In this document: piece by piece, positions 10,877 through 42,623 of the stretch
How the letters are laid out: every line of letters starts with the position of its first letter
Numbering within the stretch: the first letter of the stretch is position 1
IMG/VR virus record: IMGVR_UViG_3300021431_000003
Location: 1 to 64,000 of that record
DNA from: a virus
Taxonomy: Duplodnaviria; Caudoviricetes
DNA: 64,000 bases
Direction: 5' to 3' (one strand)
Made by a program: the position numbers and the translations under genes
Notes under the pieces: model-generated
What the model saw: the letters and a program-made list of their open reading frames with translations, nothing else
Told to the model about the DNA's origin: nothing
Database searches by the model: none

Positions 10877-12172
10877 ATGAACAGAAGCTTTACATTTGGT
10901 TGTGGACAGGGTGCAACTAAAGCAATGATTTATTGCATTGAGAATGGCACTCTTGACAGAGATGAATGTTGTGTTGTTAATTCTACTGTTAAGGATATTC
11001 CAGAAGATTATAGAGAGGATTGTATTATCATCTCTGAAGACCCAGATGCAGGATGTGGTAAGGTACGTTCTGCTGCTAAGAAGCTTATGCTTGCTTATCT
11101 CAGAAATAATCCTAATGTTATTACTGCACGTATTCCTGATGATGTACAGTATGTAAATATCATTACTACTACAGAAGGTGCATCTGGTTCTGGTGCATCT
11201 GTAGTACTTGCAAAGTATATCGAGTCTCAGCTTGATCTGCCAGTAATCATTACATTGATTTGTGGCTTTGAGTCTGATACTAGAGGTTTGCAGAATACTA
11301 TTGAGTATTTCAAAGACCTTGAGGGTGGTAACTTTGTTGTCAGAACTGTATCTAACAAGAGATTTCTTGAAAAGACTAATAATACTTTTGTTGCAGAAAA
11401 GATGGCAAATGCAGATATCTCTACAGCTTTCAAGGTTGTAAATGCATTTGACATTGTAGATTCTGAGCAGAATATTGATGATACTGACCATTACAAGCTG
11501 ATTACTAATCCTGGTATGATGTTTGTTACCGAAGTTACATTTGATAAGAAGCTTAAGAATCCTAATCAATTCGACCAGCTTGTATCTGATGCAATTGATT
11601 ACTCTTCTTCTCTTGACTTCGAACCATCTGCTACAAAGATTGGTGTGTTTATGAATATCTCTGATGATAACCTTAGTGTTATCGACACTAGCTTCTCTGC
11701 TATCAAGAAGAAGCTTTGTGGTAATAATACCATCGAGGAGTTTTTTGTTCATAGACAGTATAAGGTTGATGAGCCAGAGTTTGTAAGAATTATTGCATCT
11801 GGTATGAATCTTCCTAAGGAAGAGCTTCAGGATATGTATGCTAAGTATCAGAAGAATCTTACTGTAAATAACAACGATGATGATTTCTTCAGTGCTATCT
11901 CTGGTATGGAGACCGTATCTCAGAATACATCTACTGGAAGAAAGAAGAATGATAATGACGACTTCTTCTCTCAGTTTGATGCAGAAGAGACTACAGAAGA
12001 AGATGAACTTGTTATCAGACGCAGTAAGAGAAGAAGACCTACTGGTAATTCTGGCACACCTGATACAAAGGTCGATTCTAATGGTGGTTACGAAAAGAAG
12101 CGTGGTTTTACTGCAAAGAAAACCAATTCTAACGAAACTCCATACTCTGAGGATGTAATTAATAAGTTTTAA
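10877..12172 (+). CDS. Tubulin/FtsZ-family GTPase (PhuZ/TubZ-like)
   Basis: FGCGQG (T1), GCGK (T3), TTEGASGSG (T4 signature variant), NIDDTD (T7), acidic C-tail with DDFF repeats. Confidence 0.85.
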   Translation: MNRSFTFGCGQGATKAMIYCIENGTLDRDECCVVNSTVKDIPEDYREDCIIISEDPDAGCGKVRSAAKKLMLAYLRNNPNVITARIPDDVQYVNIITTTEGASGSGASVVLAKYIESQLDLPVIITLICGFESDTRGLQNTIEYFKDLEGGNFVVRTVSNKRFLEKTNNTFVAEKMANADISTAFKVVNAFDIVDSEQNIDDTDHYKLITNPGMMFVTEVTFDKKLKNPNQFDQLVSDAIDYSSSLDFEPSATKIGVFMNISDDNLSVIDTSFSAIKKKLCGNNTIEEFFVHRQYKVDEPEFVRIIASGMNLPKEELQDMYAKYQKNLTVNNNDDDFFSAISGMETVSQNTSTGRKKNDNDDFFSQFDAEETTEEDELVIRRSKRRRPTGNSGTPDTKVDSNGGYEKKRGFTAKKTNSNETPYSEDVINKF

Positions 12173-12181
12173 CATATAATT

Positions 12182-12256
12182 AATGATACTAAGATTTCAC
12201 ACTTCACATTTAATAAAATACCAGAGTGGCACACACCCACTCTGGTATACTTTTGC
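12182..12256 (+). ncRNA. Candidate trans-acting antisense sRNA
   Basis: AACA-tataat-TAAT promoter at 12171, about 35-nt single-stranded part, terminator ataccagagtgg/ccactctggtat; 12191-12211 is complementary to the leader at 53345-53364. Confidence 0.55.
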
Positions 12257-12324
12257 TTTTAATACCATCAACAACTATTTTATAAATAATTGTACCTTAT
12301 TGGGTACGTATAGGAGGTTTTGTT

Positions 12325-19175: not shown

Positions 19176-19946
19176 ATGAATCAGGCAGTATTTAATAAGG
19201 CATTCATAGATGGTCGTATCTATGATGTCATTGACCAGAAAGATTTTGGATTTGTGACATATCATGGTGATGCTCTTGCAGTTAATGTAGGTAACTATAT
19301 TCTTCCTGTAAGAAATTCATCTCAGATTACTAAACCTGGAATCTATTTTAATGGAATATTCTATAATCTTGTAATGCCTAGAGATGAACTCGAAGCATTG
19401 GAATATTCTACGATCCATCTTGCTTATTTTGTATCTGCTTCAACTTTCAAAGATGTAGTAGCTGCAAAAGAAAAGCTTGAGAAAGATGAGTTTAATCATC
19501 TTGTATCTAGTACTAATATCTTCACTCCAATTATTGACCCTATTAATGATAAAGCACTCATTCTTGGTCTTAAGATGGCAGTAACTGATAAGCAGTGTGA
19601 TATTAATCGTTATGCAGAAAAGTTTGGTCCTGACTTTAATAATGATAGGAGAAAGTTTAATGGTAACGATATTACAGCAGCTAAGTATGCTTCTATATCT
19701 GGTAATCTTGATATTAGAACTACTCTTATCATTGAAGATATGCATCCTGGTGTAGCTAATCCTATGGGTAAAAGAATCATTCTTACATGGGTTGGTGATG
19801 GAGAACATGATTCTATGTATGAAGACTTCTATCGTCATTCTATTAAAGGTATGCCAGTATTGAATGATGATGGAATTGTAAAATCTAATGACGGTCAGAT
19901 TGTTACAGCTGAAACAATTGACGGTATTGAGATTAACTATTTCTAA
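19176..19946 (+). CDS. Hypothetical protein
   Basis: ATG 19176 with aaagga RBS; lies directly upstream of the RNAP subunit. Confidence 0.7.
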   Translation: MNQAVFNKAFIDGRIYDVIDQKDFGFVTYHGDALAVNVGNYILPVRNSSQITKPGIYFNGIFYNLVMPRDELEALEYSTIHLAYFVSASTFKDVVAAKEKLEKDEFNHLVSSTNIFTPIIDPINDKALILGLKMAVTDKQCDINRYAEKFGPDFNNDRRKFNGNDITAAKYASISGNLDIRTTLIIEDMHPGVANPMGKRIILTWVGDGEHDSMYEDFYRHSIKGMPVLNDDGIVKSNDGQIVTAETIDGIEINYF

Positions 19947-23445: not shown

Positions 23446-23780
23446 ACTGCCATGGTGACCAGTGTTGACCTCCTATTTATGTCTAGATTGTCTAGACCAC
23501 CCAGTAATTGTTAATCAATTACTGGGTGATAAATCATTGATATTGGGTGACTCCCAGTATCAGTGTCCATTGTTGTTATTAATTTAGTTTAATCAAAACA
23601 ACTGTGGAAAACGATGGCGGCCGCAGATGCAGGGCAAATCCCTGGTCTGGAACGAGGCGATTGAATTCTACAGTAGATGGATTTGAAATAGCTTGTTGAC
23701 TGGGACATGTCGTCAACATCATCATTCTAGATTCTGATGATTTCAAATTTGAATAAGGTAAGCTCTATAAGCTTATCGAA
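23446..23780 (+). ncRNA. Candidate structured non-coding RNA upstream of tRNA-Pro
   Basis: AACA-N6-TA at 23435; no ORF; series of hairpins and two multibranch domains. Confidence 0.5.
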
Positions 23781-23806
23781 CTTCCCAATTGATAACAACG
23801 CTAGTA

Positions 23807-30400: not shown

Positions 30401-32651
30401 CTCTGATGGTTCTAAATTCTGTGCTGCTATTATTGCAGAAACTCTTTGTGAAGATAAAGAATTCGCAGAGCATTATGATGCTGCTAAGCCATCTGTTAAG
30501 TACACATATTCTCAAGCATCTATTCTTAATACTAAAATGCCAGTAATTGTTATTTGTGCATACTGTGAAGGTCTTATCAAGACTCTTAATAAGGCAGCAA
30601 TTGAATATAAGATTTCTGATAAGAGAGAAAAACTTGACGTGACAGAATGGGATACTATTAGATTCAAGGATGGTTATCTTTCTTACAAGATCAATTATAA
30701 TTCTTCTCTCTTAATGAATGGTCTTAAAGAATGTGATACAGAGGACTATTCTATTAAGGATATCAATACTAAAACTATGTGGACAGAACAGCTTGACCAC
30801 TTTGGTGGACGTATTAAAGCCGATGGTCTCGATAACTTCTATGACTTAATGTTTGACCCTATTACTCAGCGTGTATGTAGAATGTATAAACTTCCAGAAG
30901 AGTTTGTAGATGGGTTGATTTATTCTAATAACTTACTCTCTGATACTAAGTTTAATAAACATACTGATATCTCTGGTAATAGATTTAGAACAAATGAAAT
31001 CATTGCTGGTTATACTTATAAAGAGCTTTCTAAAGCTTATGCTGATTATAGAACTAAGCTTAAGAAACAAGGTAAAGCTACAATGACAATCAAACAGTCT
31101 GCAATTATAGACGCTATTATGGCAGATTCTACAGCTTCTGATGCATCTACAATTAATGACCTTTGGTATGCTGAAGCAAATAATACTGTATCCTTTAAGG
31201 GTCTATCTGGTCTTAATAGTGACCGTTCTTATTCTCTTGAAAAGCGTACTTATGATGAATCTATGACTAATGTATTAGGAATGTCTACTGGTTTTGCTGG
31301 TACAGTTGGTGTTACTCGTGTTGCTACCACTAATGCTAATGTAAACAGTAAACGTGGTTATATCGCAGACAATTCCGATGCTAAGAAAAATATGAATGAT
31401 ATAAATACTATGACAGTTGCAGAAAATCTTACTCCAATGTGTACTACTCACGATGACCCATTCCGTTTAGCAATGTCTTATGTACAGAGAACTAAACATG
31501 ATATGAGAGTAGATGGTGGTGACCCATTGTTAATTACTAACGGTATGGATGATGCGCTTTCTGTATTTACTCCAGATGTATTTACTTTCAATGCTAAATC
31601 CGACGGTAAAGTAATTGAAAGAGATGAAGACCATATTGTAGTACAATATGATGATGGTAATATTGACTATGTAGATTTAAATAACAAGGTGTATAAAAAT
31701 TCAGATGGTGGTTTCTATACTTCTATTAAGTTAGAACCTGCTAAGGGACTAGGTACTAGAGTTAAGAAAGGACAGTTAATTGCTTATGACCCTAAGTCTT
31801 ATACTGTTAACTGTGGTTATGATGATAATGCTACTTATAATCAGGGTACTCTTGCGAAGATTGCCATTATCACTTCAGACAAGGGTTTTGAAGACTCTTG
31901 TGTTGTGTCTTCTTATATATCTGATGCCTTGTCTTCTAGTGTTATCATGGAAGTTCCAGTAACACTATCTAAAAATACTAATGTATTCAATATGGTTAAA
32001 GTAGGAGAACCTGTACAAGAAGGCGACCCATTATTGATTATCCAGAATACATTTGAAGATAATGATGTAAACGTACTCTTAAAGAATCTTGTAGATGATG
32101 AAGATACAGTTACTTCACTTGGACGTATTCCGATCAAATCTAATAATACTGGTTATATAGAAGACATTAGAATCTATCGTACTTGCGAAATTGAAGAGAT
32201 GTCTCCTTCATTAAAGAAGATTGTAACAGAGTATGAAAGAAAAGAAAATCGTAAAGCATCTCAGGTTGCTAAATACGATGAAACACTTGCTAAACAATAT
32301 AGAGCACAAAAGCTTGAGCAAGAGGGTAAACTTAAAGGTGTAGAAGATGGTGTATTGATTGAAATCTTTGTAGCATATAAAGATGACTTCTCTGTAGGAG
32401 ATAAGTTAATCTTCTTGGGTGCACAAAAGGGTGTAGCTAAAGAAGTAATACCTGAAGGCGAAGAACCTACATCATCATATAGACCAGAAGAACCGATTGA
32501 TGCTATTGCATCTCAAATTTCATTTGAAAAACGTATGACATGTGCTCCATTACAATACACACTTATGGGCAAAGGTCTAGTTGAACTCGACCGCCAGGTT
32601 AAGGATATCATGGGTATCAAACAAGAATACTCAGTAAGACATAAATTTTAA
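27405..32651 (+). CDS. Virion RNA polymerase beta subunit (large N-terminal part) with N-terminal accessory domains
   Basis: GLSGLNSDRS..KR.YD, HDDPFRLAMS, NQG..AKIAI...GFEDSCVVS, VGDKL....QKGV, KRMT; ends before the C-terminal beta region; ATG 27405 with aaaggag RBS and late promoter at 27366. Confidence 0.88.
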   Translation: MAIHVNDLKNLKMYRGSNKLFIPLDRDDNKKGSLIYLLTPNISSSIDMINNPMIINRNWFRSYYVDKSINAIIKADTGEIQEFVQYEDETVQAFINEGKLSSKKRKELPDSEFGIPETRSFPLNDVAHVKAAIRMFNHCPVEYEKKLAKNIIKKVKQYGITDIEVSEENRLHAFWKPIKEAKYATWPFPIEFLTNYRFSYYKSEKEIKAETKECLSIVKNPLDFKPVGEMFVKAKFLVKCHDEEDNLAGFAVAYKHPVYGFEYCVYLDDDSFDNEDAKEEITRYLILVFRDYMYTHQTKDRIVPVYSINRDKTLIKRIKTSYIQDGSVLDRATALKALGKTHTPSEKYPVVYIDMEKLGKKQEDVKESFSVNNVIGETYLQIGNNVYFPNDDIFYEDAVDNKLRQYMYDDRIRTQKELLDVYKVVKSQCPVIKFTKTGASMYNGLNLFFDISYYNKLFIDNNTRLGEQGLRVYSETLKRFLNNKTIDKEYKTKTIFIPVLDYYHKDVNVFDYNKDLNPISTIVRLVKRNKFEELKRIFGNNNVIFFGYNTYFKVNFGEFQKSQLQRFISNINNIFNKSVPVDDEMVQDSPDAIVTDIVDKIEKSQNIELYGALGKLSILSKLEEKPEPDNKTKDGKKETQTKPQKSSESKKPTSTKQVKVKDKDDKPKTEKQVSKEVTEKKKEELISKIQDAAATSTSTEEALDKLDNDEYISNLIQDISDEESTEIKASATRKARINSLSDDFKKKNIKGKSVKELIEKSKETSDGKALEVTSANINSINNDQWDNLQYINFNNEYDVDEDIMAILNFFSTRTVPVGIRDVQVENTTTSEDLKETWTVQCEDISGTRFSLKFDIPLLKNNRFMRIKGNDKTINAQLMNLPIIKTEADTAQITTNYNKIFFYQFGSAIGKSNVVTGKLIKALDKYSGKSIMTRNGSNNITALKYEIPMDYADIGKGYVTITYKNTTFYFDQDEIREKYADKIDLSKGLPIGYDGKQIIYSDGSKFCAAIIAETLCEDKEFAEHYDAAKPSVKYTYSQASILNTKMPVIVICAYCEGLIKTLNKAAIEYKISDKREKLDVTEWDTIRFKDGYLSYKINYNSSLLMNGLKECDTEDYSIKDINTKTMWTEQLDHFGGRIKADGLDNFYDLMFDPITQRVCRMYKLPEEFVDGLIYSNNLLSDTKFNKHTDISGNRFRTNEIIAGYTYKELSKAYADYRTKLKKQGKATMTIKQSAIIDAIMADSTASDASTINDLWYAEANNTVSFKGLSGLNSDRSYSLEKRTYDESMTNVLGMSTGFAGTVGVTRVATTNANVNSKRGYIADNSDAKKNMNDINTMTVAENLTPMCTTHDDPFRLAMSYVQRTKHDMRVDGGDPLLITNGMDDALSVFTPDVFTFNAKSDGKVIERDEDHIVVQYDDGNIDYVDLNNKVYKNSDGGFYTSIKLEPAKGLGTRVKKGQLIAYDPKSYTVNCGYDDNATYNQGTLAKIAIITSDKGFEDSCVVSSYISDALSSSVIMEVPVTLSKNTNVFNMVKVGEPVQEGDPLLIIQNTFEDNDVNVLLKNLVDDEDTVTSLGRIPIKSNNTGYIEDIRIYRTCEIEEMSPSLKKIVTEYERKENRKASQVAKYDETLAKQYRAQKLEQEGKLKGVEDGVLIEIFVAYKDDFSVGDKLIFLGAQKGVAKEVIPEGEEPTSSYRPEEPIDAIASQISFEKRMTCAPLQYTLMGKGLVELDRQVKDIMGIKQEYSVRHKF

Positions 32652-36144: not shown

Positions 36145-36942
36145 ATGATGAACGTAAGTAAAAGACATGTCTATTTTATAGAAGGCGGAGATAATGTAGG
36201 TAAGACTACTACTATTCAAACTTTTAAACAGAATAAGTATATTGAATCTATTAAATTCAATAGAGTGAGATTCTCTAAATATCCAACTAGTGATGCTACT
36301 AATACTATCAATAGACTCAATACTTTATATAAAGAGAATGAAGCTAGACATAAGAATAAAGAAGTTAAAGATAGTGAGTATGTAAGAACTAAAAGAAGTA
36401 TATTAGAAAGTCTTATCAATACTATGATATGTGATATGATATCTAGTTTTGATACTCTATATAATGATAAGTGGGCAATGGCATGTCCAGATGATGTATT
36501 AGAAATATGTGATAGAGGATTTCTATCTACTTATCTATACCAATATAGAGATATGCCTGGATTAATACAAAAACTTATATCAAATATAGATGTAGAACTA
36601 GAATATCTTAAAGCATTCATTAACAAGTATCTACCACCTACAATGAATGATATCAATGTTATTATACTCAATAATAATGCTAATCCATTACTAGCAAATA
36701 TTATAATGGATGACACTGAGACTATAGAGTATAAGAAAGACTTTGATAACAATATAGAACTTCAGAGTAGGATTAACAATTCTTTAAATAATATAGTAAG
36801 ACTGATTCAACAAGATAAGGTATATGATTTATTACCAATCAAGTTTTATTATATTAATATATTTGACGAAACAGGTTCTATCAGAAAATCCCCCGATGAA
36901 ATCTGTGAAGAAATCAAAGCCATTATAAACAAGGAGGAATAA
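36145..36942 (+). CDS. Thymidylate/dNMP kinase
   Basis: FIEGGDNVGKTT P-loop, F.KYP, CDRGFLSTYLYQ. Confidence 0.8.
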   Translation: MMNVSKRHVYFIEGGDNVGKTTTIQTFKQNKYIESIKFNRVRFSKYPTSDATNTINRLNTLYKENEARHKNKEVKDSEYVRTKRSILESLINTMICDMISSFDTLYNDKWAMACPDDVLEICDRGFLSTYLYQYRDMPGLIQKLISNIDVELEYLKAFINKYLPPTMNDINVIILNNNANPLLANIIMDDTETIEYKKDFDNNIELQSRINNSLNNIVRLIQQDKVYDLLPIKFYYINIFDETGSIRKSPDEICEEIKAIINKEE

Positions 36943-36945
36943 CAC

Positions 36946-38109
36946 ATGTTTGGACCATCTTCAATCAAATTGAAATGTAGACTACTCTATAAGAATAGTC
37001 TAGTCAATAACATCTATGAGGCATGTACTTGTTGTTATGACAATACTAAGAATATCAATTATTTAGAAAAGAAAGATTATATCGGCAAGAGAATCAATGC
37101 TGGTCATGAATCTATTCTAGAACATGGAAGACTTGCTATTCTTTTTAATGATATCCCTTATAGTCTTCATAATGATATTATTGAACTTATAGGATTAGAA
37201 TACTCTAAGTGGTTAGAATTCTATACTGTACAACTTGAAAATAGAAACTACAATCTTATTGTCAATGGTAGTATCAGAGCATATAAGCATTTTCTTAACA
37301 ATCTTGAAGCAGATGTATATGATAGAAACGATATTATTCGTGATATCTGTAAGATTCTTAGAGAAAATACTGTAAAAGAACTCTATGGTAAGAGCAAGCA
37401 TATTAACTTTGATGATTTTGTCGATGTAGAACCAGATGTATTAGATATTGATATACCTAATACTGGTATTGACTATGATATCGTTTGTGAAAAATCTATC
37501 GATGGTGTTGTTACTAATGGAGAAGAAGGTATTAAGAGAATCACACTTGGAGCAGATGAACTATTTGTTACAGAACTCTCTGATATCAAAGAAGTTATTC
37601 TTCACTATGGATTTAATAAAGCTGTAATCTATAATATTCTTCCTATCACAGTAGTATTCTATAACATGTCTCGTACAGCAACACATCAACTTGTACGTCA
37701 TAGAAATGCTATTACACAAGAATCTCAAAGATATGTAAATGCTAAGAATGCTACATTTACTATTCCTGTACCAGATTATACAGATGAAAAAGAGTATACT
37801 GTAGAAATCTTTGGTAATAAAGTTACAGCACCTCTTACTGTACTTGCAACTGGTCTTACTAAAGTATATGACCAACTAATTAGACAGGGTCTTAAGAAAG
37901 AAGAAGCAAGAGCATTCCTACCAGCAAATATCAATTGTGGTAGATTATATATGACATTCACTTTATCTAATCTTATTGCTTTCTTAAATCTTAGAACAGA
38001 TCCACATGCTCAATATGAGATTAGAAAGTATGCTGAAGCTATAATTGACTTGATTACTTCTATTCCAGACTATGCTATTCTAATTGATAATTATAATAAT
38101 ATAGTGTAA
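36946..38109 (+). CDS. thyX: Flavin-dependent thymidylate synthase (long form)
   Basis: GHESILEH, SR...HQLVRHR..QESQRY, EEARAFLP, LR...HAQYEIR. Confidence 0.88.
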   Translation: MFGPSSIKLKCRLLYKNSLVNNIYEACTCCYDNTKNINYLEKKDYIGKRINAGHESILEHGRLAILFNDIPYSLHNDIIELIGLEYSKWLEFYTVQLENRNYNLIVNGSIRAYKHFLNNLEADVYDRNDIIRDICKILRENTVKELYGKSKHINFDDFVDVEPDVLDIDIPNTGIDYDIVCEKSIDGVVTNGEEGIKRITLGADELFVTELSDIKEVILHYGFNKAVIYNILPITVVFYNMSRTATHQLVRHRNAITQESQRYVNAKNATFTIPVPDYTDEKEYTVEIFGNKVTAPLTVLATGLTKVYDQLIRQGLKKEEARAFLPANINCGRLYMTFTLSNLIAFLNLRTDPHAQYEIRKYAEAIIDLITSIPDYAILIDNYNNIV

Positions 38110-38137
38110 TTATTTATTAAACTACCAACTATAAAGT

Positions 38138-38375
38138 AATGCATTAATGATGTGTGCTGTCAGTATGTGATGGCTTTTTCCGTCGTTATGCATTTGCGCA
38201 AGAGCAGAAGCTGTATTTGCTTTATATTACAGCTGTGTGTGCTGACATAGGCGGATCTGAGCTTGACACTAGCGACTAGGTACCATCGCTGAATAAGTGT
38301 CTGTAAGACTCCCCCACTCCTAGCACTGCAAGCACAATTGTGTTAAGCCTATCATTGCAGCTTTCTGCTCTTATT
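38138..38375 (+). ncRNA. Candidate pseudoknotted ncRNA, about 235 nt
   Basis: Late promoter at 38127; GC-richer, no ORF; long stems 38138-52/38181-94 and 38200-15/38356-72; loop 38158-67 pairs with 38238-47. Confidence 0.6.
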
Positions 38376-38512
38376 ATTTTTTAAAAGTTCCTATACTCAG
38401 GGTCATAAAATACTGTCCTTTCAAAAAGAATTTGAACCCTAGCACAAAGCTAGGGTTCATTTCTGCCGTTTTGAACAAATTAGTAATATATTCAATGAAA
38501 GGAGTATATCTC

Positions 38513-41500
38513 ATGGAAGAATATAGAAATATACTTGCTAACAAGTTTATGCGAGATACTAACTATATAATTATCAAAGATACTGATGACCTTGAAGAAC
38601 TAGAACGTCAATGGGAATTATTTCAATCTTCTCTTACTGTAAGACAACAGAGACTAAGCGATGATAGATCTCTTCAAATTTGGAATATGACTAATCAACA
38701 GCATTATGAAACTTTAAAAGCTGAATTGATGGGAGACTTACAGAATAAACTAGGTATAGAAGATGATGAACCTATATCTATTGAATATGAACCAGATGAT
38801 GATGAAAAGATAGATGATAGTGAAATTACAAACTTTGTTAATATGTCTTTTGATGATTTTGAGATTCCAGATGATGAGAACGAAATCTCTGAACCTATGA
38901 AAGAAGAATCTACTATACCAATTGATCCAAATCAAGCATATATAGATAATCATAGATGGAAGATTGGATATGATGGTATTGACAGAGAGAAAGATAAGAT
39001 TGCTGACCAATATGAGATTGATTCTAATATTAATATTATCGGTGGTGTATATGGTGAAACACCTAAAGAACTGTTAGACAATCTTGAAAAAGCATATCAA
39101 GCTTGGAACTCTCAAAATCAAGACCATAGAAAAAAGTCTGATGATAAGTGCAGAGAAATCTATGGTATGTCTAATATAGATAGATATAATAAGCTTAAAG
39201 GCATTTTTGTAAAGATGTCTGTTCCAAAGACAGATAAAGATGTATCTAAGAATATTAGTAATAATACTAATTCTTCTGAAGAAGCATTAAGCGAATTTAC
39301 TCTAGAAGTATATCGTAATATGCAAGTAGTTAATGAAGCAGAATCTAATAAAGCCAAACAACATAGAAGACTCAATGATACTCCATACTTTACTCCAAGT
39401 GAAATGATTGATATGGGAGTACATGGTAATCATAATTACTATTGTAAAGATGCAGATAATGATGGTCTTATTACAAGAGTAAGAATTCCAACTTGGTTTG
39501 ATTCTTATAAAGATATGTGTATGGACCATATCTTTGAAGACTATACTAGAGATTGGATTGATACATTAGACTATCTATACTCAGATTTTGAAGAGATTAA
39601 AGAGTCTGGTAATGAAGAAAAGATTCTTGCTCGCAAACAGTCTATTCTTGATTTGGGTTGGAATCCAGAGATTCCATTTACTAGACGTAATAGACAATTA
39701 GCATCCAAACGTGTATCTAAGCTATTAGATAAATCTAGTCCAATGAATCTCTTTATTAATCTTGATAAAGAAGTTCCAGATGAAGCTATAACAGATGAAC
39801 CTGTTACAGAAAATGCATCTAAAGATACGCATCAGCCTATCTATATGGTATTTGTACAAGGCAAAGCTCCTGTCGTATCAACTGCTATTAAGAAGGTTAC
39901 TAATTCACCATTCTCTCACATTGGTATCTCTTTTGATTCAAAATTAAATACTGTACACACATATAATATGGTACCAAAACCTGGCGTAGTAAAAGAAACT
40001 TTGTCTGGTTATAAAGATAATATCATTACAGTAATGGCATTCTTTGCTCCTACAGATATCTATAACACAATGAAAGACACCGTAATGGATTATTATATCA
40101 ATGCTAAGAAAACTGTATATGACTTTGGTATTATTTTTAATAAGCTAATCAATAAGAATGCTAGAGTAGTAAACGATAAGTACCATCAAGTATGCTCTAC
40201 ATTTGTTGATACTGTGCTTAAGTCTGGTAAAGTAACGTTAGATAAAGATGCTAATGTACCATCTCCAGCAGAATTATATAATGCTACTAAGTCTATGCCT
40301 AATAAGATTATTGAAGTATATTCTGGTCCAGCAGATAAATATGATAGTGTTAAAGTAGATAAGAAGATGAATAAACTCTTAGAAAAGGGCACTAAAGCTA
40401 TTGATGAAGCAACTGATATTGCTTCTCAAATTAAACTTGTACCAGCAACCCAATCTGATACTGAAAATATGTATAATTGGGAAATGGAGTCTATTGATAA
40501 ATCTCTTCAATCTGATAGTAAAGTTATATCTTGCATTAAACAAGATGTACAAGATTCTATCAAAGATACTAAGATGATTACTTATAATAACAAAACTATC
40601 GGTATGCTAACTTGCTGTTATATAGATAACGGTGAATGGTGGTATATTGGCGAGATTTATCTAATACCAGAATATCGTAATAAGGGTATTGGTACAAAGC
40701 TTATCAAAGAACAAATGCAATCTCGCGATAAAATCAAACTTCAAGTAGCATATAGTAATAAGGGTGCTATAAAGTTGTATAAATCTCTCGGATTCAAAAC
40801 CATAAATAAAAATGATAAAGGTAAGATGTATATAATGGCTTACGATAAATCTCAATCTTTAGAAGAAGCTGTAACTGATTTAAAATCATCAGAATCTAAT
40901 GATATATATCATAATATAGAGGATTGGGAGTCTGGTAAATCTAACTTATTATGGATTACTGGATTATCTGGTTCTGGTAAATCTACTATAGCTAAAGAGA
41001 TATCTGGAAATAACATAGAACATGTAGAACTGGATAATCTTCAAAGAGCTAAAATGGATAACTGGGACCACACTGGTTCTACACTTATGGATGATTATAT
41101 TAAATCTAAAGGTGGTCTTACTAATATCTTTTCTTATGTAAACGATTTAGATGAAGTTAGATGGAAAGACTTAGTGTCTAATGAAACTGAATGTCCTAAG
41201 CAATTCAATGATTTCTTTGAATATATAATTAAATATGCTAATACTCATAAAAATAAAAGATTCGTTGTAGAAGGCGTACAAATTGCAATGTGCTCCAAAA
41301 ATACTACTATAGCAAAGATATCTAAATACCCAGTTATTATAAAAATGAATGGTCCTCTCAAAACAGAATTTCGTAGAGAGAAACGTACCATACAAACAGG
41401 TATAGATAAAAATGATACCTTTATAAAAATATTAAAGACTGTTGCTAATAGACATAAAAACTGGTGGAAACAAAACTTTTATATGGATGATTGGAAAGAA

Positions 41501-41968
41501 ATCAATTACTTTAGAACTCATATAGGAGAATCAGCTTCTATACTTAATGAAGTAAAGCAATTCCCAGTAGAATTCGACAAAGATGGTAATCTCATTATCT
41601 ATAAGGTTCGTATAGGTTCTATCGCTTATGGTGATGAGATTGATGATTCTGTAAAGTTATTAGAGTCATATAGAAATACTAACAATATTGAAGGTATGAA
41701 ATATGAACTCGCTAAGCTTTGGTTCATTAACGATTCTATTGAAAAGAAGCTTAAAAAGAAACTTACTAATGACCAATATAAAGAACTTATTGACCATAGA
41801 GCTACTTGTTTGAATGTATTTAAGCTCAATCTAGAATATGTAATGAAAGCAGAGAAAGGATTTAACTTCTCAGACTATTATAACTCTACTCCATTCTCTG
41901 ATAATTCAATTAAGATTACTGCTAATACATTAAAATACTCTATGAAAGCTATTGCTAACATGATATAA
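38513..41968 (+). CDS. Multidomain (polyvalent) virion protein: permuted papain-like NlpC/P60 + GNAT + P-loop kinase domains
   Basis: IKKVTNSPFSHIGI...YD......CSTFV (YiiX/YebB-like); EIYLIPEYRNKGIG...N.GAIKLYKSLGF (GNAT); WITGLSGSGKST (P-loop); late promoter at 38474. Confidence 0.8.
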   Translation: MEEYRNILANKFMRDTNYIIIKDTDDLEELERQWELFQSSLTVRQQRLSDDRSLQIWNMTNQQHYETLKAELMGDLQNKLGIEDDEPISIEYEPDDDEKIDDSEITNFVNMSFDDFEIPDDENEISEPMKEESTIPIDPNQAYIDNHRWKIGYDGIDREKDKIADQYEIDSNINIIGGVYGETPKELLDNLEKAYQAWNSQNQDHRKKSDDKCREIYGMSNIDRYNKLKGIFVKMSVPKTDKDVSKNISNNTNSSEEALSEFTLEVYRNMQVVNEAESNKAKQHRRLNDTPYFTPSEMIDMGVHGNHNYYCKDADNDGLITRVRIPTWFDSYKDMCMDHIFEDYTRDWIDTLDYLYSDFEEIKESGNEEKILARKQSILDLGWNPEIPFTRRNRQLASKRVSKLLDKSSPMNLFINLDKEVPDEAITDEPVTENASKDTHQPIYMVFVQGKAPVVSTAIKKVTNSPFSHIGISFDSKLNTVHTYNMVPKPGVVKETLSGYKDNIITVMAFFAPTDIYNTMKDTVMDYYINAKKTVYDFGIIFNKLINKNARVVNDKYHQVCSTFVDTVLKSGKVTLDKDANVPSPAELYNATKSMPNKIIEVYSGPADKYDSVKVDKKMNKLLEKGTKAIDEATDIASQIKLVPATQSDTENMYNWEMESIDKSLQSDSKVISCIKQDVQDSIKDTKMITYNNKTIGMLTCCYIDNGEWWYIGEIYLIPEYRNKGIGTKLIKEQMQSRDKIKLQVAYSNKGAIKLYKSLGFKTINKNDKGKMYIMAYDKSQSLEEAVTDLKSSESNDIYHNIEDWESGKSNLLWITGLSGSGKSTIAKEISGNNIEHVELDNLQRAKMDNWDHTGSTLMDDYIKSKGGLTNIFSYVNDLDEVRWKDLVSNETECPKQFNDFFEYIIKYANTHKNKRFVVEGVQIAMCSKNTTIAKISKYPVIIKMNGPLKTEFRREKRTIQTGIDKNDTFIKILKTVANRHKNWWKQNFYMDDWKEINYFRTHIGESASILNEVKQFPVEFDKDGNLIIYKVRIGSIAYGDEIDDSVKLLESYRNTNNIEGMKYELAKLWFINDSIEKKLKKKLTNDQYKELIDHRATCLNVFKLNLEYVMKAEKGFNFSDYYNSTPFSDNSIKITANTLKYSMKAIANMI

Positions 41969-42068: not shown

Positions 42069-42623
42069 ATGCTTACAGGACATGAAATTCTTAAACAAGT
42101 TAAAAGGAACAATATTATTATTGAACCTTTTAATCTTGACCAGTTGAATCCTAACTCTTATAATGTAAGACTAGGAGAACGATTAAAAGTATATGAACGT
42201 GATAATGTACTTGACCTTAAACTAGAGAATAAGTGTTATAATGAGATTCTTATTCCTAAAGAAGGTTTTGTACTATTGCCTAACACTCTTTACATTGGAG
42301 CTACTAAGGAAATCATTGGCTCTAATAAGTTCATTTCTGCTATTGATGGAAGAAGTTCTATTGGTAGATTAGGTATGCAGATTCATCTTACTGCAGGTTT
42401 TGGAGATATTGGTTTCAAAGGAACATACACTTTGGAAATCACTGTTGTACAACCTGTTAGGATTTATCCAGACTATCCTATCGCACAAGTATACTTTGAG
42501 AAACCTGATGGTAAGGTAGACTTTCTTTACTCAGGTAGATATCAAGGTCAAGTACAACCTACTGAATCTAAATCAAATATAGATAGTAAACAGATTCAGG
42601 GATATCATTATAAGGAGAGATAA
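42069..42623 (+). CDS. dcd: dCTP deaminase
   Basis: QLNPNSYNVRLG, GRSSIGRLG, TAGFGDIGFKG.YTLEI, Y.GRYQGQ. Confidence 0.9.
   Translation: MLTGHEILKQVKRNNIIIEPFNLDQLNPNSYNVRLGERLKVYERDNVLDLKLENKCYNEILIPKEGFVLLPNTLYIGATKEIIGSNKFISAIDGRSSIGRLGMQIHLTAGFGDIGFKGTYTLEITVVQPVRIYPDYPIAQVYFEKPDGKVDFLYSGRYQGQVQPTESKSNIDSKQIQGYHYKER

Follow-up and report, generated by a model that had tools for sequence, protein, structure and literature searches.

A noncoding RNA with a late-type promoter, a covarying rod and a self-complementary apical loop in a gut phage related to AR9 and phiKZ

Natural RNA quaternary structures are described as scarce (PMC12990946). The HIV-1 DIS (PMC5874298, PMC4066764) offers a close likeness to the RNA reported here: in both, a palindrome is placed at the 3' side of a hairpin loop, with unpaired bases on its 5' side. 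The differences are of context and of composition. Ours is a stand-alone noncoding RNA of a DNA phage, not a genome-packaging leader, its dimer is a prediction, and the central pairs of the palindrome are U-A in most copies. The phi29 pRNA (PMC4201828) is also phage-encoded, with a core of about 170 nt and intermolecular kissing (predicted in our case); however, the pRNA is essential and carries two different loops on a three-way junction, whereas the present rod bears a single self-complementary loop and some relatives lack it. OLE, ARRPOF, ROOL, GOLLD and manA (PMC12286853, PMC12990946, 10.64898/2026.07.01.735769) are structured RNAs whose function is unclear; they associate by way of kissing loops, and some of them are phage-borne or rumen-derived. 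The RNA under study gives no match to their Rfam models, and in place of a multi-junction fold it has a plain rod without branches that carries a single palindromic loop. Two further systems bear on its surroundings. The late promoters of phage AR9 follow the consensus AACA-(6N)-TA/G, the last base being the transcription start (PMC5312081). In T4 leaders of the I-TevI type (PMC2988022), transcripts initiated upstream mask the Shine-Dalgarno (SD) sequence, while a gene-proximal promoter yields mRNA without the masking strand.

The stretch of DNA analysed (the window) comprises the opening 64,000 nt of a virus record that is complete, has direct terminal repeats and measures 223,528 bp. The phage encodes a 1765-aa homologue, at about 32% identity, of the virion RNA polymerase beta subunit known from staphylococcal jumbo phages, LPJP1 and PBS1, and is therefore a relative of AR9 and phiKZ with polymerases of its own. 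To our knowledge, the abundant noncoding RNAs of such phages are largely uncharacterised. The sequencing runs that contain the phage are animal gut samples, several of them from sheep or cattle, and the RNA belongs to a group of large phages of the rumen and gut. No cultured phage was found with the RNA or with the N-terminal part of the multidomain protein encoded downstream of it. A 212-kb contig of the same phage family (L186, CAADXH010000018.1) lies inside a GTDB 'Bacilli bacterium' MAG; it is probably mis-binned there and of no use as host evidence.

The RNA is single copy in the genome. Its upstream neighbour is thyX (36946-38109, plus strand; PF02511, E 2.3e-33); downstream, and outside the RNA, lies the gene for a 1151-aa multidomain protein with GNAT and P-loop parts (38513-41968, plus strand; Pfam and PHROG matches). 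A P-loop kinase-like gene together with thyX (36145-38109) and a dCTP deaminase gene (42069-42623) suggest that the phage has thymine DNA. The late promoters of AR9 are reported to depend on uracil in the template strand (PMC5449584, PMC9209446); the AR9-type late consensus is present at promoters here despite the gene content pointing to thymine DNA.

The promoter at 38127-38138 (plus strand), AAC[A/T]-N6-TA, is of the late type used by the phage non-virion RNA polymerase. It shares with AR9 late promoters (PMC5312081) the arrangement AAC-N-(N6)-TA with +1 at the final A, and differs in that its fourth base is A or T and that this phage encodes ThyX. The form AAC[A/T]-N6-T[A/G] precedes 62 of 159 ORFs at a distance of no more than 70 nt, where 10.7 would be expected, and the enrichment is about 6-fold across three genomes (this one and two related ones with similar figures). 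By analogy with AR9, +1 would fall at 38138, the final A of the motif, as the earlier note had proposed. A near-identical promoter stands 3' of thyX in nearly every relative examined. Elsewhere in the window, a short promoter-to-terminator unit without an ORF is present at 12171-12270.

At the other end, an 11-bp terminator-like hairpin (38433-38459, plus strand), probably bidirectional, has an equivalent in all relatives examined; it was scored as a minus-strand terminator, its plus-strand U tract being weaker. Beyond it lies a second late-type promoter (38474-38485, plus strand; +1 about 38485), followed by the SD of the downstream gene (38497-38504); in 20/20 loci this promoter is found 25-33 nt 5' of the start codon. 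Since the terminator hairpin and the second promoter both come before the downstream gene, the RNA is most likely a separate transcription unit of about 320 nt ending at the hairpin. The protein gene is indeed the next one downstream, but the placement of the RNA directly upstream of it in the earlier description has to be qualified by these two intervening elements.

Expression was assessed by comparing contigs of four gut metatranscriptome runs, under four study codes, with positions 36900-39400; one of these runs comes from the study to which the likely source sample belongs, and another two may stem from a single campaign. Three of the four contained a contig identical to the window that covered only the RNA (38156-38389, 38165-38335 and 38233-38400). 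The fourth contained a variant of it at depth 87 over 38188-38418, flanked by contigs of depth 2-6; at its 5' end this variant continues for another 47 bases, which correspond to the variable hairpin of close homologues. Such confinement to the RNA stretch argues against DNA carry-over, which would be unselective, although contigs of this kind carry no strand, ends or level and stable RNAs survive better. The RNA contigs reach 38418 and stop short of the downstream gene, so the RNA probably extends past 38375, where it had first been taken to end.

The plus strand folds with a minimum free energy (MFE) of -79.6 kcal/mol (z -3.18, with 0/200 shuffles as good) against a z of -1.73 for the minus strand, which bears out the strand assigned in the earlier note. 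Domain 1 (38138-38194, plus strand) is a hairpin that starts at +1. Its 14-bp stem, recognised from the outset, is part of the MFE structure and is kept with changed pairs in homologues; the 28-nt loop that had been drawn on it is not open, a 7-bp inner stem lying inside it in the MFE structure. No part of the RNA varies more than this interior, and the hairpin is also present in relatives that lack the rod. We infer that it is probably a 5' stability element. Domain 2 (38200-38372, plus strand) is an irregular rod without branches, about 170 nt long; its closing stem P1 (38200-38215 pairing with 38356-38372), already proposed, is also found in the MFE structure. Of the inner helices proposed with it, 38265-38270/38296-38301 and 38271-38275/38286-38290 are in the MFE structure; ataggc/gcctat is not, and competes with an invariant core helix described below.

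With the neighbouring proteins as bait, the corresponding interval was retrieved from about 25 related phages. Nine distinct homologous sequences could be aligned, and these are the basis of a 50-pair model of the rod. In a plain MAFFT alignment 92.6% of the cells of the model are paired and 14 pairs are doubly changed, a level of covariation reached by 0/500 shuffles, and sliding the partners leaves at most 4 doubly changed pairs; in an alignment fitted to the model the figures are 94% and 16 pairs. As the structure was drawn from the same nine sequences, an independent check was needed. L187, which took no part in building the model, is detected by it at E 1.3e-5, and L118 exchanges the first two pairs of the core helix from GC to CG on both sides. 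In all homologues folded, the rod is the MFE structure or lies no more than 3.7 kcal/mol above it. Pattern scans of viral contigs returned only L075, besides unrelated matches.

Two elements inside the rod stand out for their sequence. The first is the core helix (38219-38226, plus strand, pairing with 38341-38348), which contains a U-U mismatch and a U-G wobble and is invariant among 11 homologues including L187 and L118 (the exchanged pairs of the latter apart). Because its sequence is fixed beyond what pairing requires, comparison of the homologues suggests that the U-U/U-G helix is a candidate protein-binding site. The second, at 38239-38250 (plus strand), is the 5' strand of P3 (partner 38321-38326) followed by the conserved internal-loop motif CAUAG. 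P3 is changed on both sides in L094, L096 and L114, and CAUAG is retained in divergent rods; it may be a further protein-recognition site. Both of these proposals are weaker than that of the dimer discussed below. The six closest copies alone have a second palindrome of 10 nt (38333-38342) on a small inserted hairpin.

The fold differs from the one first put forward, in which a long-range pseudoknot joined the domain 1 loop to domain 2, with ribozyme activity as a possibility. The two strands are complementary at 10/10 positions in the window, three of the ten pairs being G-U, yet both are occupied by other helices, namely the inner stem of domain 1 and the covarying P3. Freeing them costs 16.5 kcal/mol for a gain of 11.5 before any loop penalty, a net of about 5 kcal/mol, at the least, on the unfavourable side. 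Across the nine homologues the pairs formed number 10, 10, 10, 7, 6, 6, 5, 3 and 2 of 10, and the full 10-bp helix is limited to three near-identical copies (the window, L116 and L098). Being lost in divergent homologues, in competition with P3 and energetically unfavourable, the pseudoknot was rejected as a conserved feature. A remnant of 4 bp (UCAG with CUGA) can form in the six closest copies, where a short alternative pairing is possible. As a model of the whole RNA, a pseudoknotted two-domain molecule is highly improbable, and no ribozyme family is matched.

What persists from the earlier note is an uncatalogued, structured RNA with its own late promoter. It had named an Rfam scan, expression and covariation as checks: no family was matched, RNA contigs are present, and double changes were found. 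It had also recognised no tmRNA, SRP, 6S, RNase P or riboswitch, in agreement with our Rfam searches at the gathering score and at E<=10. With Rfam 15, neither the RNA nor about 20 related loci gave a match even at E<=5-10. It is highly probable that this is a real, expressed and covarying noncoding RNA absent from Rfam. The RNA is uncatalogued relative to Rfam, and may be among the unreviewed candidates of Fremin et al. 2023 (PMC10690425).

The individual families were also considered by their diagnostic features. ARAGORN and Rfam were both negative for tmRNA. The GNRA tetraloop and symmetric internal loop of SRP helix 8 are absent, the apical loop being a palindromic one of 7-11 nt. For RNase P, with its P4 pseudoknot, CR-I and CR-V, no CR-I sequence was found, and an RNase P-like AGC(C/U)U stretch near the 3' end is accounted for by the core helix; Rfam matched the RNA to neither of these families. 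Likenesses to the hairpin ribozyme, RNase P, group I introns, SRP and tmRNA seen by eye were rejected, essential residues being missing and Rfam negative. No RVT_1 match occurs in five genomes, in line with neighbours that are thyX and a GNAT/P-loop protein and not a retron, nor does any TROVE gene that could point to a Y RNA-like function, although the Ro60 of a host might be a partner. A comparison of the proteins specific to rod-bearing genomes brought no candidate partner gene to the fore.

The length of the irregular rod (about 170 nt), the good representation of the RNA in RNA libraries and the phage's possession of its own polymerases call to mind a 6S-like promoter mimic that would bind host or phage RNA polymerase. 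The 6S covariance model (RF00013) found nothing in any of five genomes at E<=1, with positive controls. 6S RNA has a central bubble in a rod of 180-200 nt; here the pyrimidine bubble ranges from about 13 nt to nothing, and the rods measure 120-190 nt, those of L117 and L187 being as short as about 120-130 nt. We regard this putative function as very unlikely. The RNA behaves instead, so far as its sequence allows us to infer, as a self-associating RNA of the DIS type that is a member of no tested family.

That view depends on the apical hairpin (38265-38301, plus strand). Its loop (38276-38285) contains the palindrome GGUACC (38279-38284), with unpaired probabilities of 0.75-1.0 in the window. 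The GGUACC loop is present in 11 distinct sequences: all 9 of the aligned homologues and the rods of L115 and L117, which are otherwise unalignable and escape detection by the rod model. In L187 the loop has two purines, the palindrome GACGUC and an A, and in L118 it is self-complementary as UGG-U-CCA. Palindromic hairpin loops are found in larger RNAs as well (GGCGCC in L188, GCGCGC in L105), though homology of the loop is secure for L187 and L118 alone, the hairpins of L188 and L105 being unalignable and possibly non-homologous. A fixed 6-mer is calculated to be palindromic by chance about once in 64, and among shuffled sequences the share that has a small loop with a GC-rich palindrome is 0-23%, depending on the RNA. 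None of the short rodless RNAs has such a palindrome, nor does the apical loop of L077, which bears a different rod.

The likeness to the DIS extends to the details of the loop. A GC-rich palindrome is exposed at the 3' side of a 7-11-nt apical loop, with unpaired bases 5' of it, and the computed energy of the kissing helix is -8.2 kcal/mol for GGUACC against -7.9 for HIV GUGCAC. Exposing the palindrome costs 1.7 kcal/mol in L187 and 3.7 in L094 and L115. Counting against a dimer, GGUACC has central U-A pairs, and in HIV central G-C pairs are important for kissing (PMC5874298). The invariant loop could also be simply a protein site. On balance, we think it somewhat probable that two copies of the RNA pair loop to loop as a homodimer. 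The idea that GGTACC might be a special site in the DNA was discarded, as it occurs 11 times in the genome.

The distribution of the rod constrains what such a dimer could be for. In a midpoint-rooted tree of the downstream protein (first 330 residues), the rods found fall in one clade; L092 lies inside this clade and yet has none, and both L092 and L100 lack it though their neighbouring proteins resemble those of rod-bearing phages. The rod model matches nothing in four complete genomes (G002-G005), which carry RNAs of about 90 nt or unrelated ones at the equivalent promoter. Shared by most relatives is a unit of promoter, 5' hairpin, tail and terminator. Because it is missing in L092, L100 and complete relatives, the rod is, as judged from these genomes, probably dispensable to the phage, which speaks against a role in the packaging motor and for one in interaction with the host. 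The late-type promoter and the potential to multimerise would suit a virion-associated RNA whose dimer serves as a head packaging or scaffold element, in the manner of phi29 pRNA or the retroviral DIS/psi. However, a rod missing from several complete relatives and from L092 is no essential motor part. The model is also unbranched, with 0 branch points in place of the pRNA three-way junction and its left- and right-hand loops, and Rfam gives no pRNA match. Such a virion role is, in our judgment, improbable.

Several relatives depart from the common arrangement. L105 (1010-1385) and L188 (702-1050) have structured RNAs of 350-430 nt at the same promoter, with short motifs common to both and no Rfam match. 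In L077 (975-1340) and L102 (1040-1420) the interval from thyX to the multidomain gene contains two promoter-hairpin-terminator units in tandem, and L077 bears a different branched domain. In L118 (822-1062) two tandem rods follow a very short 5' hairpin. In the window, an ORF-free stretch at the tRNA-Lys/tRNA-Pro cluster (23446-23800) has several long hairpins and an MFE of -120 kcal/mol; Rfam gives no match to it, and the rod model finds no kinship with the RNA.

The remaining part of the RNA is a single-stranded 3' tail (38373-38432, plus strand) with an anti-SD element at 38416-38423 and CAU at 38404-38406, 5' of it; the tail recurs in most relatives, with or without the rod. It had gone unremarked in the earlier note, which likewise passed over the CAUAG motif, the core helix with its U-U mismatch and the self-complementarity of the apical loop. 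One could take the RNA for a leader or attenuator that acts in cis on the multidomain gene downstream. In predicted read-through RNA the best partner of the downstream SD is an upstream tail element in 16/20 loci, the mean predicted pairing of the SD is 0.79 there against 0.48 in mRNA from the gene's own promoter, and T4 I-TevI (PMC2988022) provides a precedent. By this modelling the tail can mask the ribosome site of the downstream gene in read-through RNA. Unlike in T4, about 80 nt and a terminator hairpin would separate the masking strand from its target, and that strand belongs to the tail of a separate RNA; its action is predicted. The terminator and separate promoter, and RNA contigs that end before the gene, are at odds with a leader. 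SD-tail pairing is weak in this genome (0.17), cognate tail and SD pair no more strongly in duplex energy than mixed ones (p 0.73), and the tail alone would be accounted for. We therefore hold a leader function to be decidedly unlikely.

Alternatively, the tail might silence phage or host mRNAs in trans through its anti-SD/anti-AUG sequence, the rod being an appendage for stability or protein loading. The promoter-hairpin-tail-terminator unit is common to most relatives, including rodless forms of about 90 nt; those of L078 (1340-1440) and L080 (1346-1445) are made up of a 5' hairpin, a stretch complementary to a generic SD-to-AUG region, and a terminator, and may act as trans sRNAs. For the RNA itself, however, the top predicted targets differ from genome to genome, and the conserved rod is left unexplained. 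The best match in this genome pairs 38394-38422 with part of the virion RNA polymerase beta coding sequence (31766-31797; 11 nt, then 13/14); it was rejected as an antisense guide, 11-12 of 300 shuffles being as good (p about 0.04) and pairing being poor in G001. Complementarity to the start of the ORF at 19176 was not among the top duplexes, and a minus-strand mini-ORF starting from the anti-SD, which might suggest a type I toxin, has 5-20 codons and an unconserved peptide. Base-pairing in trans is an improbable account of the RNA.

The reading we favour, tentatively, is that of a late, dispensable RNA that forms a DIS-like kissing dimer and acts as a protein decoy or scaffold; this last function, taken separately, is speculative and somewhat short of an even chance. 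The phage late RNA polymerase would transcribe the stand-alone RNA of about 320 nt, whose end the 5' hairpin would protect. The rod would present its 6-nt palindrome at the 3' side of the apical loop, and two molecules would pair loop to loop to give the homodimer, while the core helix with its U-U/U-G and the CAUAG loop would be recognised by a protein. With its two arms, the dimer could then bind an RNA-binding protein in late infection and act as a decoy or scaffold. Closely related phages differ by gain, loss and remodelling of the rod, which would make a host factor that senses or degrades RNA the most plausible target. The tail, for its part, may mask the ribosome site of the next gene in read-through transcripts, so that mainly mRNA from the gene's own promoter would be translated.

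It is tempting to go further and see the locus as the seat of a rapidly evolving group of late RNAs, of about 170-430 nt, that assemble themselves through palindromic kissing loops. Their dimers or larger assemblies would be counter-defence decoys made of RNA alone, or cargo of the virion that is injected along with the genome; this wider idea is conceivable but unlikely. The logic of RNA counter-defence is familiar from adenovirus VA RNA. If the dimer does bind a host defence or RNA-decay protein, the phage RNA would be a counter-defence device of similar logic. Otherwise it is still an uncatalogued noncoding RNA family with a fold supported by covariation, a small RNA seen in metatranscriptomes, whose natural loop variants can serve as controls for dimerisation.
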